Below are positions 47,602 to 53,430 of a DNA stretch of 64,000 nucleotides, piece after piece. Where the stretch lies: IMG/VR virus record IMGVR_UViG_2681813318_000003; one strand, 5' to 3'. Position numbers and translations under genes: made by a program. The notes beneath the pieces were generated by a model that ran no database searches, was not told the origin of the DNA, and saw nothing but the letters and a program-made list of their open reading frames with translations. The stretch comes from a virus (Duplodnaviria > Heunggongvirae > Uroviricota > Caudoviricetes). How positions within the stretch are numbered: the stretch's first letter is position 1; every line of letters starts with the position of its first letter.

Positions 47602-48080
47602 TGTTGTTTTGCCTCCATATGTTGATCGATTTGCTCATGTGTTTCTTTTGTTGTTTCTTCAAGCAACGCCGCATACACGTCAGTGATCGCTGTTTGTGAT
47701 GTGGCGCTCTTCTTAACCATGCTATTAATCGTTACACTGTCACGTTTTCGTTTTATAGTTCTGGCTTGTTTATTCCGTTCTTCAACCTCCTTAATGAGTG
47801 CGGTCATATCTTCGAAATACAGAGATTCTCCTTTACGAATCTCTTCAACCATCATTTTTAACGCCTTGCATTTGCCTGCTTTGATAGCGGTTGCGCACGA
47901 CTGGAATGAAGTTCGAGGAAGACGGTTTTCTTTGAAGGCAAGAATGGTGTGCTGGCAAACGGAGTAGCTGCAATATGCCGACTCACCGTTTATCTTTACT
48001 TCCTCACAACGAAGTGAATAACCATTATTTCCTGAAATAGAGGGGATTTTTGACAAATCAGCTTTCACAACCACCGCCAC
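47598..48080 (-). CDS. hypothetical protein
   Basis: 160-aa ORF with a GTG start per the track. Confidence 0.45.
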   Translation of the reverse strand: MAVVVKADLSKIPSISGNNGYSLRCEEVKINGESAYCSYSVCQHTILAFKENRLPRTSFQSCATAIKAGKCKALKMMVEEIRKGESLYFEDMTALIKEVEERNKQARTIKRKRDSVTINSMVKKSATSQTAITDVYAALLEETTKETHEQIDQHMEAKQQ

Positions 48081-48135
48081 AAATAATCTTGTACCTACCT
48101 ATCATTCTTTGCGTAAAAAACGACACACTGAGAGA

Positions 48136-48918
48136 TTACCAACTTCCCCAGCTAATCATCTTGCGCTGATTGCTTTCTAAGCGATAGGGGGCAAGAAGCT
48201 CTGTGACATGATTGGTGGCGTATGATTTGGCCTCTTGCTCTATCATCGGTAATTCGTTAGCAATCCTGACCATCTTCCCAGCAAATTCCGCCATTACGCC
48301 ATCACACGCCTTACCCGCATCAACAATGATATGCACAAGATCCAACTGGCTTTTGCACATGTCCCAAAGAGTCGAATATTCGCTCTCCCTGATTAGGTTT
48401 ACAGCATCATTAGCCCCTTTATTAATCAAAACCTCCAACAGATTTGTCGGGGTGACGAAATCGGCTTTCAGAGACAATGTTGGTTCAGCTTTTACCGACA
48501 GCAAGTAATCTTCAAAGTTTTGCTTGTCTTCCAGCAAAGCTAAACTACGCATAGCTCGAATTGATTCTCGAATAACGGCTTCAATATGTTCGTCACCTGG
48601 AGGACAGATAATGGTATCTGTATAGATGACTCTGCCATCAAACCACGCCCCAACCTGCACTTTTAGAGTTCGTAAGTTTTCTTTGCGTACAAAAACAACT
48701 AATGCAGAACGTCGTGCATGTGCAGGTTCGCCCCATACGCACAACTTAACCTTCAGATAAGGTAGCCCCGGTAGAGGGATCTCGACCAAACGAGTGGCGA
48801 TATGATCCATTGCCGTATTGACGGCTTTTTCAATGATGTCTAGCCGATTGCTCTCGCTGATTTCTAAACCAGTTTTATCAATGATGTTGCAGGCTAATCT
48901 CTTAATTTCTTCTTTCAT
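48136..48918 (-). CDS. hypothetical protein
   Basis: 260-aa ORF; AGGAG RBS. Confidence 0.55.
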   Translation of the reverse strand: MKEEIKRLACNIIDKTGLEISESNRLDIIEKAVNTAMDHIATRLVEIPLPGLPYLKVKLCVWGEPAHARRSALVVFVRKENLRTLKVQVGAWFDGRVIYTDTIICPPGDEHIEAVIRESIRAMRSLALLEDKQNFEDYLLSVKAEPTLSLKADFVTPTNLLEVLINKGANDAVNLIRESEYSTLWDMCKSQLDLVHIIVDAGKACDGVMAEFAGKMVRIANELPMIEQEAKSYATNHVTELLAPYRLESNQRKMISWGSW

Positions 48919-49043
48919 ACCAACTCCTAGCTAACGGATGAAAGTATTCTTACAAAAACTTAAGTATGTATCTACTTATAATTTTAGGTGCAATAGTTCC
49001 CTATACGAGGATGCCGGGCTTATAGTCTGCCCGGCATTCACCA

Positions 49044-49457
49044 TTAATGAGCTACAGCCTCACTGTTGCACATCTTTCTGTAGACCTGCTTATAACGCTG
49101 TAAGTCATGAGGATCATTAGGTGCCAACGACTTCGATAGGATTTTGTATACCACCCCTTTCGAAAACATGCCCTTTGGCTTCATTTCGAGTTCAACAACA
49201 TATGAGTGATAGCCCACGTATGCACCAAAGCCATTTTTGGCGTTCAATTCTCCGCACACAAAGCCTGTCACACTTCCATCGTCATGATCAGTCCTGACAA
49301 ACTTATCTTTCCTAAACATCACCGACGTGGGATCTTTCATATCATCCGCAATTGCTTGTTGGCCCAGAGCAATAGCCTTCTCGTCTGTAGGCTTACACCC
49401 CACTAAAGCAAACAAAGACAATAAAGCTCCTGTTAAAATCAGCTTATTTTTGCTCAT
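49044..49457 (-). CDS. lipoprotein of unknown function
   Basis: Signal peptide with lipobox LVGC; 137 aa. Confidence 0.6.
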   Translation of the reverse strand: MSKNKLILTGALLSLFALVGCKPTDEKAIALGQQAIADDMKDPTSVMFRKDKFVRTDHDDGSVTGFVCGELNAKNGFGAYVGYHSYVVELEMKPKGMFSKGVVYKILSKSLAPNDPHDLQRYKQVYRKMCNSEAVAH

Positions 49458-49689
49458 GTTGGCTTCCCTTTATTTATATTTATTGCAGGTATTAGTTAAT
49501 CAAAACACGAGCAGTGCCACAATAATTAAATGGCGTACTATTTCTTATGGTTATTAGTTTCCCGGTAACTTTACCGACCATAAACTAAATCAACAAAGCT
49601 GACATATTAACTAAATTTAAGTACCCTTTTCGCACACTTGACGCTTGCCGCGTCTAAACTGTTCATCCTATATCAACAGAACAAAAAAT

Positions 49690-50835
49690 ATGAAATACAT
49701 AAAATCTTCATCGTTGCTGGCATTAACTTTGCTTTTTAGCTCTGGATTCGTTAACGCAGACAATAAACAAACGCTGATAGAAGCCGCTAACGCAGGGAAT
49801 ACCGCAGCACAAAGTGAGTTAGGGACAAATTATTTTGATGGTATCAATGGTTTTGATAAGGATGTAGTTGAGGCCAAGAAGTGGATTGATCTAGCTGCAG
49901 AAAAGGGAGATAAAGTAGCATATTATGCACTTGGAGTTATGTACACATTTGGCGAGGGTGTAGATAAAGACCTAAATAAAGCTGTTGAGTACTACAAACT
50001 TGCGGGGGACGCTCGTGAAGGTAGAGCCTACAACAATCTTGGTGCTATTTATCAAAAGGGGATGCTTGGTAAAGTAGATCATGCACTCGCCATTAAATAC
50101 TTCAAACTAGCCTCTGATGCCGGGTATGTTAAAGCAACTTCAGTTCTTGGGGCGTATTACCAATATGGTGAAGGCGTTCAAAAGAATTATAAAAAGGCTT
50201 TTGCTTATTACAAAAAAGCGGCGGATCAAGGTAGTTCAGATGGTATGTTCGCATTAGGCACCTTATACGATGATGGTTTAGGTGTTAAACGAAACGATGC
50301 CGAAGCAATTAAGTGGTATAAAAAAGCTGCTGAACTCGGAAACGTCGATGCCATGACAAATCTTGGCATTATGTATGAGAATGGCGAGGGTGTTAAAAAG
50401 GATTATAAAAAAGCAGCCGATTTTTATCAGGCCGCTTGCGATAAAGGAGATAAAAGCGGCTGTAAATACATTGCAGAACTGAAAGAAAGCGGCAAATATC
50501 GAGCGCCGGCTTCCAAAGCCAAAACAAAATCCGCCACCCAGCGACTTATTGCTAAATCCATTGATAAGGGCGTTAACGCTACATTTACCTGGCAGGGTGA
50601 TGATGCTACCTTCACCGCTAATGATGGCAAAGTTGACTGCACCTTCCTGAAGGATTTTTCAGAGAAAGGAGGCAATCTGGCTACCTCGTTTGTTTGCACC
50701 GATAACGTTCAAATCATCCTGAAGCAATTCAGAGATACCAAAAATGCCTACCTCGCGGTAATGACTGACAACTTCAATACTGAAGTTAAATCATTTTCGG
50801 TCAATGTGTATGTGACTAATACTGGTTCAAACTAA
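49690..50835 (+). CDS. secreted Sel1-like repeat protein
   Basis: Signal peptide MKYIKSSSLLALTLLFSSGFVNA followed by ~7 Sel1-type repeats (A..W..KAA..G........LG.MY..G.GV..D); start moved to ATG 49690. Confidence 0.7.
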   Translation: MKYIKSSSLLALTLLFSSGFVNADNKQTLIEAANAGNTAAQSELGTNYFDGINGFDKDVVEAKKWIDLAAEKGDKVAYYALGVMYTFGEGVDKDLNKAVEYYKLAGDAREGRAYNNLGAIYQKGMLGKVDHALAIKYFKLASDAGYVKATSVLGAYYQYGEGVQKNYKKAFAYYKKAADQGSSDGMFALGTLYDDGLGVKRNDAEAIKWYKKAAELGNVDAMTNLGIMYENGEGVKKDYKKAADFYQAACDKGDKSGCKYIAELKESGKYRAPASKAKTKSATQRLIAKSIDKGVNATFTWQGDDATFTANDGKVDCTFLKDFSEKGGNLATSFVCTDNVQIILKQFRDTKNAYLAVMTDNFNTEVKSFSVNVYVTNTGSN

Positions 50836-52008
50836 TGCAGCTATGCCTTTTACCTTGCTTAAAAGTTCAAGCTGTCGTGAGTAAGGTTTTGCGCAATAGT
50901 AGGCTTTGATAATCTGCCCCGGGGTCGCATCGCCGGGGTCTAGTCCTTCCTCGCCCAAACATGCAATTTTCACATTAAGACCGATACTGGTCAGTCGCCT
51001 GGCTGCGGCCATAGTGTTTCGTATAGCTTGCTTTTCACTATCCCACATCATGATCACATTACGTAATCCACGCGTCTTGAGCGTCAGGAACGCGCCTAAC
51101 TGATCTTCTGCATCCTGAGTGGTGTTGCCAGATAGATGCATCCCGAACGTTCCTATTGGTTCCACATAATCACGTAATGTTTCTTCGTCAAAAATAGCTC
51201 GTTTGACCCCCATAACATCGAACGCCCCCTCACAGACAACTACAGTCTGTTTGCCGACTGCATTATGGCCGTTGTAGAGAAACTTACCTGAAGCTGGAAG
51301 CTGCATAGGAAAGAGGTAGCGGCGTTCTGCTGTACCGGTAATGTCTCGTCCCTGAAATGTCTTCATTACCCCATCCAGATCGTAAACCGGTATCAGTATT
51401 CGCATATCGAATATCTGTCCTTTAACCTGATCTGTATACGGATCTACATAGGCGTGCTTGCCTTCGACGCAGTATCGTAGGTCAAAATACTTTGCCATTT
51501 CAGGCGATATGTTTCGTTCAACCAGATAGTCTGGAAGACGGCCATCTATAGGAAGTTCGTAATGACGAGGGAGTGCAAGTGGTCCCTCTAACTCGACTGT
51601 GCTTGCAAGCACTATCTCTTCTTTCTTTGGTGCCCACCCCTGGGAAAGAAGAGCGTTCTGCACATATTCCTCGAACTGTCGTCGTGATTTACCGCTGTAG
51701 TGCTTGAGGAAGACCAGCTTATTGAACTGAATCTCTTCGGGATGATCACCAGCGAAGCATTTGCCGACGCCACTGGTCAGATTGAAATATACCTTCCAGT
51801 TGGAGCTGCCGCATACCGGACATTCCTTGATATTCACTTCACGACCGCGAGCACTCACGCCTCCACGTCGATAAACGATACCTTCAGTGTCCAACCATTG
51901 TTCAAAATCTAATTCGGTAATTAGCTCTTTCAGCTCGCTCACGATAATTCCACTTTTAACAGGCAATATTGTGACCAACCTAAATGTTGATATAACATAA
52001 AGGCTCAT
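50827..52008 (-). CDS. DnaG-like DNA primase
   Basis: Zinc finger CPVCGSS...C..DH and TOPRIM (VVVCEGAFDVMG, MWDSE); start moved to ATG 52006-52008 with the conserved leader. Confidence 0.75.
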   Translation of the reverse strand: MSLYVISTFRLVTILPVKSGIIVSELKELITELDFEQWLDTEGIVYRRGGVSARGREVNIKECPVCGSSNWKVYFNLTSGVGKCFAGDHPEEIQFNKLVFLKHYSGKSRRQFEEYVQNALLSQGWAPKKEEIVLASTVELEGPLALPRHYELPIDGRLPDYLVERNISPEMAKYFDLRYCVEGKHAYVDPYTDQVKGQIFDMRILIPVYDLDGVMKTFQGRDITGTAERRYLFPMQLPASGKFLYNGHNAVGKQTVVVCEGAFDVMGVKRAIFDEETLRDYVEPIGTFGMHLSGNTTQDAEDQLGAFLTLKTRGLRNVIMMWDSEKQAIRNTMAAARRLTSIGLNVKIACLGEEGLDPGDATPGQIIKAYYCAKPYSRQLELLSKVKGIAALV

Positions 52009-52089
52009 GTGTTTTTCTTTTGTGGTTTGGCAAAAGAAAAGTTGTTTCACCAATGAATCAAGCGTGGAGGTGTTCTCCACGCTTATTTT

Positions 52090-53430
52090 TTAGGTAACGT
52101 CTAAGATCCGCTCAATGAAGCGCATTTGTTCGAGGTTTTGTTTAACACGAATGCTGATCCCTCCCTGCTGGTTACGTGAACCAGCAAAGTAGAGACGAGC
52201 CTCTCCTTTCGCTTCTTCTTCTTCGGTTTTGTTGATCGTTATTACCAGGTCAGCAATACGTACTTTTTCGATGTTGTCGGCGGCGTGCATCATTGTGGCA
52301 ACTTCTGACGCGCCACCTTCACGGTTTGTCTGCGATGCCGTGATTCCAGCAACGTTATGTTTGTCATAAAGAGCACGTAAATCGGTGTAGATACTACGAA
52401 TGTTGGCGCGATCATCACGAAGGTCATAACTGGCACGCATCAAATCTGCGTAGTCGACAACAAGCATGTCAGGCACCATGCCATTGGCTTTCATACTGTT
52501 AAGCATACGGTCCAGATCTGCCGGTGACATACTTCCTGACGGACGCTCAACCACCCACAAACTACCAATCCCCTTCGTGGCTCCCAACTCTGCCAACTTA
52601 CGATGAACCTCATCGCGCCGTTCCACCAGCTTGGACATTTCTGTCTCCGACAATCTTGCATCAAAACGGTCGGATAAAATGGTGGTGTGAACCTCCAGCG
52701 AAAGATACAGAACATTGTAGCCAGCAAGCGTTGCATTTATGGAAAATTCACCCATTGCGGTCGATTTACCGGATTTAGCGAACCCCATGAAGAGCACCAT
52801 TTCACGCTTCGCCCAGCCTTTTTGGTACAGCAACCTATCGAGCAGAGGGAGTCCAGTTGTAATGCTGTTTGGCACATACTCCTCTGAAGCCTCATATTCA
52901 CGCGCTTTCAATCGCTCACTTGCGGAGGTGTAGTAGTCATAGATTCCGGTCGCTTCGTTCGATCCAATCTGCTGAACCTTGGCCATGATTGCCATCGCCC
53001 CCTGAAAGTCGCCTTTCTCTTTCAGTTCAGCAGCCTTAATCAGAGCATCATCAAACGCTACACTTTTTGCGAAGGTTGATACCTGGTCAACCATGTACGA
53101 GGTATCGGACAATTTTTCTGCAAGAATGCGCTTAAACGCAGCAACAACATCGGCGAATAGTTCCTCACGGATAGTCTTATCGCGTTTCGCACGCTTAAGC
53201 ATATCCAGAATTGCAGATGAAGAGGGCGCGCTCTTGTACATACGGTAATAGCCCGAAACCATATTAACCAATATGGCATTGGCCGCATTGGCAAATTGGC
53301 TAGGCACAACCAGATCTCCCGCACGAGTAAGAAACTCGTGATCACGACAAAAATATGCCGTCAGTCTGTTCTGGAAATCTTCATCAAACTCTTCGGACAG
53401 CCCGCGTCCTGTATGGCAAAGTTCTGTCAT
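52090..53430 (-). CDS. DnaB-like replicative helicase
   Basis: RecA-fold C-terminal domain with Walker A GFAKSGKST and Walker B LVVDYADL. Confidence 0.75.
   Translation of the reverse strand: MTELCHTGRGLSEEFDEDFQNRLTAYFCRDHEFLTRAGDLVVPSQFANAANAILVNMVSGYYRMYKSAPSSSAILDMLKRAKRDKTIREELFADVVAAFKRILAEKLSDTSYMVDQVSTFAKSVAFDDALIKAAELKEKGDFQGAMAIMAKVQQIGSNEATGIYDYYTSASERLKAREYEASEEYVPNSITTGLPLLDRLLYQKGWAKREMVLFMGFAKSGKSTAMGEFSINATLAGYNVLYLSLEVHTTILSDRFDARLSETEMSKLVERRDEVHRKLAELGATKGIGSLWVVERPSGSMSPADLDRMLNSMKANGMVPDMLVVDYADLMRASYDLRDDRANIRSIYTDLRALYDKHNVAGITASQTNREGGASEVATMMHAADNIEKVRIADLVITINKTEEEEAKGEARLYFAGSRNQQGGISIRVKQNLEQMRFIERILDVT

Follow-up and report, generated by a model that had tools for sequence, protein, structure and literature searches.

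The 64,000-nt stretch of DNA analysed here – IMG/VR virus record IMGVR_UViG_2681813318_000003, referred to throughout as the window – derives from an Escherichia coli phage-plasmid of the SSU5/pHCM2 group, and carries within its replication genes a variable segment with two genes whose products are predicted to be exported. Phage-plasmids of the SSU5 type are frequent in E. coli and in further Enterobacteriaceae, and are known to carry resistance genes such as blaCTX-M-15. Positions 48000-52500 of the window match the Escherichia phages PhiR41_1, Cyrano, and CMS-2020a at 94-96% identity and Salmonella phage SSU5 at 80% (megablast), and the region of the two-gene cassette is 98% identical in plasmid pECOH89 and 96-98% identical in related E. 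coli phage-plasmids. One gene encodes a putative lipoprotein and lies on the minus strand; the other encodes a Sel1-like-repeat (SLR) protein and lies on the plus strand (Table 1). Both open reading frames (ORFs) are located where the initial annotation had placed them and diverge, as it described, from an AT-rich spacer of 232 bp. They are annotated in pECOH89 as ‘hypothetical protein’ and ‘tetratricopeptide repeat protein’.

Comparison with PhiR41_1 by blastn reveals homology across 48000-48979 and again from 50852, such that 1,872 bp of the window replace 39 bp in PhiR41_1. The flanks encode a ligase, a Toprim primase, and a DnaB-like helicase, and the prediction of an accessory insert inside the replication block is thus borne out. 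Homology between slot variants stops at 48979-48983 in every comparison, just past a conserved element of ~40 bp that is 85-92% identical in PhiR41_1, an E. coli contig with the Sel1 gene alone (L038), Citrobacter (L011), and Salmonella (L012). On the right, the border falls within the final ~8 codons of the primase gene, which are part of the exchanged segment: among seven elements compared, the primase C-terminal tail is KGIAAL[VL] in all four that carry the Sel1 gene, and LGIK[AS]L[VS] in SSU5, pHCM2, and PhiR41_1. The Sel1 gene was correctly described as converging on and overlapping the primase 3′ end; the overlap is 9 nt, with the Sel1 TAA stop at 50833-50835 and the primase TGA stop (minus strand) at 50827-50829, and annotated coordinates give an identical overlap in pECOH89, Citrobacter, Enterobacter, and plasmid pTLYA-2. 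The G+C content of the lipoprotein gene (43.2%) and the Sel1 gene (41.3%) differs modestly from that of the primase gene (46.8%) and of the window (45.5%). No direct or inverted repeats flank the segment, the sole repeats being the internal Sel1 repeats, and the cassette contains no transposase; an origin as a transposon was therefore rejected, and the cassette has likely spread by homologous recombination in the flanks rather than by transposition.

Across the SSU5-like family the slot is found in at least five states. It is empty in PhiR41_1 and in most Escherichia plasmids of a listing spread over the 222 that match the region. The lipoprotein gene alone, co-oriented with the primase gene and ~60% identical, is present in Salmonella pZ1322HSL0038-2 and Cronobacter pCS1, and the Sel1 gene alone is present in Citrobacter freundii (417 aa), Enterobacter hormaechei, and E. 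coli-type backbones (a 345-aa allele; contigs L037, L038, and L044). Both genes are present in the window and pECOH89, with the full cassette in 55 of the 92 matching PLSDB plasmids. The fifth state is that of SSU5 (L008 3494-4459) and pHCM2 (L006 3407-4459), in which the slot is occupied by an ORF of 321-350 aa belonging to phrog_22938, with no signal peptide and a cytoplasmic-looking product. That this ORF is a diverged Sel1 gene was considered and rejected, as it has no BLASTP similarity to it, no Pfam or PADLOC match, and its own PHROG assignment. The initial annotation had treated the lipoprotein and Sel1 genes as one insert unit; this does not hold, as each occurs alone in the slot, the former in Salmonella and Cronobacter, the latter in Citrobacter, Enterobacter, and E. 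coli. Nor is either a syntenic core gene, a status that the initial annotation had asked to be checked: the two are missing from SSU5, pHCM2, PhiR41_1, Cyrano, and most Escherichia relatives. Because the slot is also empty, lipoprotein-only, or Sel1-only across the family, the two genes are independently distributed and dispensable cargo, neither a pair nor core replication genes.

The same picture emerges from larger collections. A 4-kb query around the cassette matches 397 plasmids, of which only 53 contain the whole region; against these 397, the Sel1 C-terminal domain is present in 91 and the lipoprotein (at ~59% identity or more) in ~66. In 91 PLSDB plasmids the Sel1 gene adjoins the primase gene, always at the same junction (60 from Escherichia, 22 from Enterobacter, eight from Citrobacter, and one uncultured), so that a Sel1 gene at this place, which had been considered unusual, is not a one-off, recurring in three genera. 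The cassette is matched in 62 of 5,426 complete E. coli genomes (55 with most of the cassette), and all 63 places are on plasmids; a chromosomal origin in E. coli was rejected, the three chromosomal places recovered being due to the flanks, with the cassette alone matching none. Carriers were recovered from humans, poultry, pigs, dogs, cattle, soil, and water and are not associated with a pathotype. Plasmid pLR-46_1 retains remnants of both cassette ends, as left by a deletion, insertion sequence (IS) insertions are present in other elements, and the E. hormaechei copy of the Sel1-only state is interrupted by an IS3-family element. The remnants and IS insertions show secondary loss of the cassette and are evidence that the cargo is dispensable. 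One Sel1 homologue is chromosomal, in Escherichia whittamii (L014 8001-9776), where it is followed by a 72-aa 3′ fragment of an SSU5-type primase gene and preceded by IS3-family fragments; reading of the ORFs places it in the trpA-ompW-tonB-cls region. Because the primase fragment is retained and IS3 fragments adjoin, this copy is taken to be a captured piece of such a phage-plasmid, now chromosomal: it was acquired from an SSU5-type element.

Both cassette products carry apparent export signals, as had been predicted – a lipobox on one and a signal peptide on the other – and these are family-wide. The lipoprotein N-terminus, MSKNKLILTGALLSLFALVGC followed by K, has a basic n-region, a hydrophobic core, and the lipobox LVGC, which conforms to the pattern [LVI][ASTVI][GAS]C. 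Under the +2 rule, a lysine (and not Asp) at +2 predicts that the Lol system would sort the protein to the outer membrane. In the family alignment, which is characterized by the motif LKDPxSAxF...VCGEVNAKNxFGAYxG, Cys21 and Cys68 are invariant and Cys130 is nearly so, which suggests a lipid-modified cysteine and one disulfide in the lipoprotein, probably Cys68-Cys130. The family is large, with 1,346 cluster representatives recovered by HMMER at E-values up to 1e-3, mostly of 105-145 aa. Among the top 149 members, 98 have a lipobox, 42 a hydrophobic N-terminus, three are fragments, and six have neither (140 of the 146 full-length members thus have one or the other). The lipoprotein matches phrog_2320, a family of unknown function, at 1.9e-39, and searches of Pfam (even at E=10), NCBIfam, PADLOC, and PDB sequences gave no match, and scans of all 25 members of the family alignment likewise gave none. 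The source names of ten clusters are ‘hypothetical protein’ or ‘SPOR domain’ only. Fusions to cell-wall-binding domains, either SPOR or bacterial SH3, occur in some members. The mature protein is predicted to fold as an N-terminal helix packed on a four-stranded antiparallel sheet, cystatin/NTF2-like; fold searches with this model return generic cystatin/NTF2-like matches in PDB and uncharacterised phage proteins in BFVD. The ratio of nonsynonymous to synonymous substitution (dN/dS) is 0.04-0.18. There is no second copy of either cassette family within the window. Elsewhere, E. hormaechei SSU5-like plasmids (H219-H221) carry a distant member of the lipoprotein family (30% identity) at another locus, at ~73 kb, and at least three of the E. 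hormaechei plasmids with this distant member also carry the Sel1 gene beside the primase gene.

The mechanically called ORF of the SLR protein (49645-50835, plus strand) begins at a TTG codon. Translation almost certainly starts at the ATG at 49690, because the Prokaryotic Genome Annotation Pipeline (PGAP) calls this start in pECOH89 and all homologues align from MK(Y/L/F)I; residues are numbered here from this ATG. The N-terminus, MKYIKSSSLLALTLLFSSGFVNA followed by DNKQ, reads as a classical signal peptide with a V-x-A cleavage site, and one or other export signal is present in every full-length homologue, a copy in a P2-like prophage having the lipobox LSVGC instead. Pfam Sel1 (PF08238) matches six repeats at 4e-54, with 179.5 bits against a cut-off of 30.7. 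The AlphaFold2 (AF2) model confidently predicts a solenoid of 14 helices in seven repeats at residues 23-266, the alpha/alpha solenoid characteristic of Sel1-like proteins; the last repeat contains the conserved pair Cys250/Cys258.

The central and late Sel1 repeats of the SLR protein are allelically hypervariable: relative to E. coli plasmid pTLYA-2 (L022), nucleotide identity across this segment is 55-69% in ungapped windows and 45-69% in those free of large gaps, compared with 90-100% in its flanks, and there is an insertion/deletion of one repeat (108 nt). IMG/VR contigs in which the ligase, primase, and helicase are 98-100% identical to those of the window carry Sel1 alleles that are 98, 92, 68, and 60% identical, with lengths of 345, 381, and 417 aa. 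The repeat part has a dS of ~1.6 with a dN/dS of 0.15, which points to old alleles exchanged by recombination rather than to recent positive selection. The C-terminal domain of ~95 residues is the most conserved part, with 35 invariant columns, including Cys317 and Cys336, and a dN/dS of 0.06-0.08; it has no Pfam match even at E=10 and belongs to no known family. Conserved homologues and dN/dS values of 0.04-0.21 across the two cassette genes establish that both ORFs are real genes and not chance ORFs.

Both families recur as add-on genes in unrelated temperate phages. Genes of the lipoprotein family are located between ogr and int in the P2-like phage SEN5, between tail genes K and I in phage Fraca and Pseudomonas phage AUS531phi, between the tail chaperone and tape-measure genes in Klebsiella phage vB_VIPKPNMC05 (L019 3207-3728), and next to the tape-measure gene in a Paracoccus phage. 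The site in the Klebsiella phage corresponds to that of HK97 gp15 (L048 1704-1892), a 62-aa protein annotated as ‘Gp15, moron product’; this analogy is one of insertion site only. Homologues sharing the Sel1 C-terminal domain are found directly after J and tail-fibre genes in lambdoid prophages and, as the lipobox-bearing copy, in a P2-like contig, flanked by the tail tube gene and gpE, the neighbours in these cases being identified by reading ORFs and not by family searches. Full-length Sel1 homologues are also encoded in chromosomes or megaplasmids of Pseudenterobacter, Pantoea, and Leclercia. In Pseudenterobacter timonensis (L009/L018 6211-13894) the homologue lies among fragments of filamentous-haemagglutinin (Fil_haemagg) and PT-VENN (CdiA-type) toxin genes together with a NERD-domain gene, a locus that is a toxin-orphan or mobile island. 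No partner gene appears consistently across the contexts of the Sel1 homologues.

The variable region is wider than the cassette, because the 260-aa gene to its left is itself allelically hypervariable, with 99, 79, 59, 43, or 40% identity where the ligase, primase, and helicase of the backbone are mostly 98-100% identical. Apart from its PHROG assignment (Table 1), this gene has no match in Pfam, NCBIfam, or PADLOC, and further genes around the slot are ORFs without a family match. The ~40-bp element upstream of it could serve the leftward genes as operator or promoter, or could mark a boundary of recombination. The spacer between the cassette genes is ~34% G+C (33.7% over 49440-49700) compared with 45.5% window-wide, and so is AT-rich as described; its designation as a promoter region rests on composition, a scan of it yielding no consensus site. 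A hairpin directly 3′ of the lipoprotein gene is not followed by a U-tract and is thus not a canonical intrinsic terminator; it is absent from the terminator-like sites of the scan. The scan also reveals no terminator between the Sel1 and primase genes, whose convergent overlap leaves no space for one. Four tRNA genes are clustered at 44199-44852 on the minus strand of the window (Ser-TGA, Thr-TGT, Tyr-GTA, and Asn-GTT).

Table 1. Features of the cargo slot and its surroundings in the window.
Feature	Coordinates	Strand	Size or residues	Properties and basis
Variable accessory segment (cargo slot)	48980-50851			blastn junctions against PhiR41_1
Lipoprotein gene	49044-49457	(-)	137 aa	Same strand as replication genes
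Lipoprotein signal peptide and lipobox	49395-49457	(-)	Residues 1-21	LVGC, Lys at +2; read from sequence
Divergent intergenic spacer	49458-49689		232 bp	AT-rich; presumed promoter region
SLR protein gene	49690-50835	(+)	381 aa	Pfam Sel1; phrog_8741 over full length
Signal peptide of SLR protein	49690-49758	(+)	Residues 1-23	Cleavage after VNA; read from sequence
Sel1 solenoid	49756-50487	(+)	Residues 23-266	Seven repeats, 14 helices; AF2
Hypervariable central and late Sel1 repeats	50036-50523	(+)		Comparison with pTLYA-2
Conserved C-terminal domain of SLR protein	50542-50832	(+)	Residues 285-381	Predicted beta-rich
Convergent overlap of Sel1 and primase genes	50827-50835		9 nt	
Hairpin	49009-49039	(-)	11-bp stem	~-22 kcal/mol by RNA fold; directly 3′ of lipoprotein stop
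Conserved ~40-bp element	48945-48983			TTCTTACAAAAACTTAAGTATGTATCTACTTATAAT; dyad AAGTA..TACTT; left boundary of slot, upstream of 260-aa gene
260-aa gene	48136-48918	(-)	260 aa	phrog_4248 at 1e-131; left flank of slot
ATP-dependent DNA ligase gene	46279-47601			Pfam; replication neighbour of slot
Toprim DNA primase gene	50827-52008, ORF reaching 52080	(-)		Pfam DNAG_N and Toprim_2; right flank of slot
DnaB-like helicase gene	52090-53430			Pfam; beyond primase

We propose, with a probability of about 0.7, that 48980-50851 is a moron-type slot holding two unrelated and independently acquired genes that are candidate lysogenic-conversion factors of the cell envelope. Phage morons as defined by Hendrix and colleagues (PMC3594210) are recognized as extra DNA relative to close relatives, with a differing base composition, a promoter and terminator of their own, and expression from the prophage. 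By analogy, the resident plasmid-prophage would express both proteins as lysogenic-conversion factors, and we infer their expression during plasmid carriage and a role in binding proteins within the envelope. The lipoprotein would be exported by Sec, processed by Lgt and LspA, and sorted by Lol to the inner leaflet of the outer membrane, as its Lys at +2 predicts. The SLR protein would also be exported by Sec, be periplasmic or secreted, and form its disulfides in the periplasm; its variable Sel1 surface could set specificity, with the conserved C-terminal domain as a constant functional or anchoring part. The two would act separately in the envelope by binding other proteins, and a carrier cell would be protected, either by the exclusion of superinfecting phages or by the neutralisation of periplasm-acting toxins.

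The protective part of this proposal is tentative and draws on analogy. We favour it because the add-on sites of both families elsewhere adjoin tail, tape-measure, or fibre genes, because some members of the lipoprotein family carry cell-wall-binding fusions, because ancient Sel1 alleles have been kept on identical backbones, and because Sel1-repeat immunity proteins have a precedent in Sel1E (PMC7108748). Exclusion genes of the cor, llp, and gp15 type are likewise located beside tail, tape-measure, or fibre genes (PMC3594210). A more ambitious version, which we regard as doubtful, is that the slot is a diversifying hot spot of envelope-located protection, with both families being new classes of superinfection-exclusion or toxin-immunity proteins and the diverged Sel1 alleles having different targets.

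Several observations count against this interpretation. The relaxed promoter scan of the spacer gave 8-of-12 matches at best, in addition to the lack of a consensus site, and no convincing terminator was found for the cassette genes. The PHROG matches of the cassette proteins are to families of unknown function only; in PADLOC the lipoprotein has no match, and the SLR protein has one of 23.6 bits, between residues 202-252 (Sel1 repeats) and the first ~50 positions of PtuA. No toxin, type VI secretion system (T6SS), or receptor-binding gene lies beside the cassette within the window. The AF2 model of the C-terminal domain (residues 285-376), with eight strands, is of low confidence, with predicted local distance difference test (pLDDT) scores of 45-63. 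Finally, the export and localisation of the cassette proteins, their expression in lysogeny, and their protective function are all things that we infer. Among the PHROG families matched (phrog_2320 and others of unknown function) none is annotated as a superinfection-exclusion family such as Cor or Llp, with no direct comparison to Cor or Llp having been run.

The cassette proteins could instead be host-interaction or virulence factors, the SLR protein acting like E. coli EsiB, the Helicobacter pylori Hcp proteins, or Legionella LpnE, and the lipoprotein like lambda Bor. EsiB binds secretory IgA (immunoglobulin A), and lambda Bor confers serum resistance. EsiB, Hcp, and LpnE are indeed the closest Sel1 relatives, but Sel1 solenoids resemble one another generically, and these proteins lack the conserved C-terminal domain. 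Moreover, the sources of carriers are diverse – humans, animals, soil, and water – and have no pathotype link, homologues occur in Pantoea, Leclercia, and Pseudenterobacter, and the SLR protein is predicted to be periplasmic with nothing pointing to its release beyond the periplasm, and we consider this explanation unlikely. We give still less credence to the suggestion that one or both are orphan immunity genes forming a plasmid-borne defence, in which they would neutralise periplasm-acting effectors such as T6SS phospholipases or VgrG toxins, peptidoglycan hydrolases, or colicins. Sel1-repeat immunity is documented in Klebsiella pneumoniae Sel1E, which protects against VgrG4 and whose C-terminal extension is likewise uncharacterised (PMC7108748), and PA5086/PA5087 are among the PDB matches of the SLR protein. 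Variation among alleles on a conserved scaffold, together with a predicted periplasmic location, is in keeping with immunity specificity; Fil_haemagg and PT-VENN toxin fragments are present in the region of the Pseudenterobacter homologue, and the SPOR and SH3 fusions put the lipoprotein family at the cell wall. However, the match to PA5086/PA5087 is much weaker than those to other Sel1 proteins, Sel1E is likened by description, and no effector next to the Sel1 homologues was identified from Pfam labels or by reading ORFs; in the one locus among contact-dependent inhibition (CDI) toxin fragments, the Sel1 homologue is not immediately downstream of such a fragment.

Two further explanations are less likely still. 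An obligate two-gene envelope module, e.g. an outer-membrane anchor with a periplasmic adaptor, would account for their adjacency across one shared AT-rich spacer in the window and ~55 E. coli plasmids and for the predicted envelope location of both products. It is improbable and largely refuted by the occurrence of each gene without the other at the same site. Homologues of each are also present in other phages or chromosomes without the partner, and the lipoprotein gene shares the orientation of the replication genes instead of being arranged with the Sel1 gene. The position of the Sel1 gene among replication genes, its 9-nt overlap with the primase gene (present in all five of the Sel1-bearing elements that were checked), and the lack of an intervening terminator in the scan could alternatively reflect a replication or regulatory role, in which the Sel1 gene, or convergent transcription into the primase 3′ end, tunes primase expression or copy number. 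Such a role is the least probable of all: the Sel1 gene is missing from most relatives (the infectious phages SSU5, PhiR41_1, and Cyrano among them), its homologues reside in tail modules of other phages, IS-disrupted copies persist, and a product with an export signal and disulfide cysteines would be unable to act on cytoplasmic DNA replication. Two independent cargo genes in a moron-type slot thus remain the explanation that we prefer.

The cassette is already in public records, and is in kind a typical example of lysogenic-conversion cargo. In the library searched, no paper connects Sel1 with SSU5-like elements or reports a Sel1 protein encoded by a phage, and there was no sign that the cassette genes have been studied. 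Of moderate interest as by-products are a precisely bounded multi-state slot, a large unnamed lipoprotein family, and a conserved C-terminal domain joined to variable Sel1 alleles; each of the two cargo families turns up repeatedly as an add-on in temperate phages that are not related, and each lacks a family description. Where SSU5-like phage-plasmids take up cargo, and what effects this has on the envelope, bear on their spread and persistence. If the proteins are exclusion or immunity factors, two widespread families would be added to the prophage-encoded protection genes, and the lipoprotein family offers a cheap and well-defined target for functional screening.

Among the closest known systems are plasmid pECOH89 and SSU5-like phage-plasmids of E. 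coli related to it (AnCo1/2 and others), which have the same cassette in the same place with no difference of substance. Other secreted Sel1 proteins – E. coli EsiB (c5321, PDB 4bwr), H. pylori HcpC and HcpB (1ouv, 1klx), and Legionella LpnE (6deh) – lack the beta-rich C-terminal domain of the SLR protein and are chromosomally encoded with host-directed activities, whereas the SLR gene is phage cargo. The T6SS immunity proteins K. pneumoniae Sel1E (against VgrG4) and Pseudomonas aeruginosa PA5086-PA5088 (Tli5, against PldB), the latter being periplasmic, are Sel1-repeat proteins like the SLR protein, but there is no cognate effector near the cassette in the window. The predicted mature lipoprotein has a cystatin/NTF2-like fold in common with cystatins, latexin, and VirB8/TraE/DotI, and its analogy with the Cor and Llp exclusion lipoproteins is positional only, members of its family being found in tail modules and one at the HK97 gp15 site. 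There is also a resemblance to phage morons (HK97 gp15, lambda bor and lom, cor of phi80, N15, and HK022, and llp of T5), which are likewise extra DNA of lower G+C encoding small envelope-targeted products, including lipoproteins. Insertion sites are also shared, with the lipoprotein-family member at the HK97 gp15 site and homologues of the Sel1 C-terminal domain following tail-fibre genes as cor and lom do, but the slot described here differs in being located in the replication block of a phage-plasmid rather than in a tail or lysis region.

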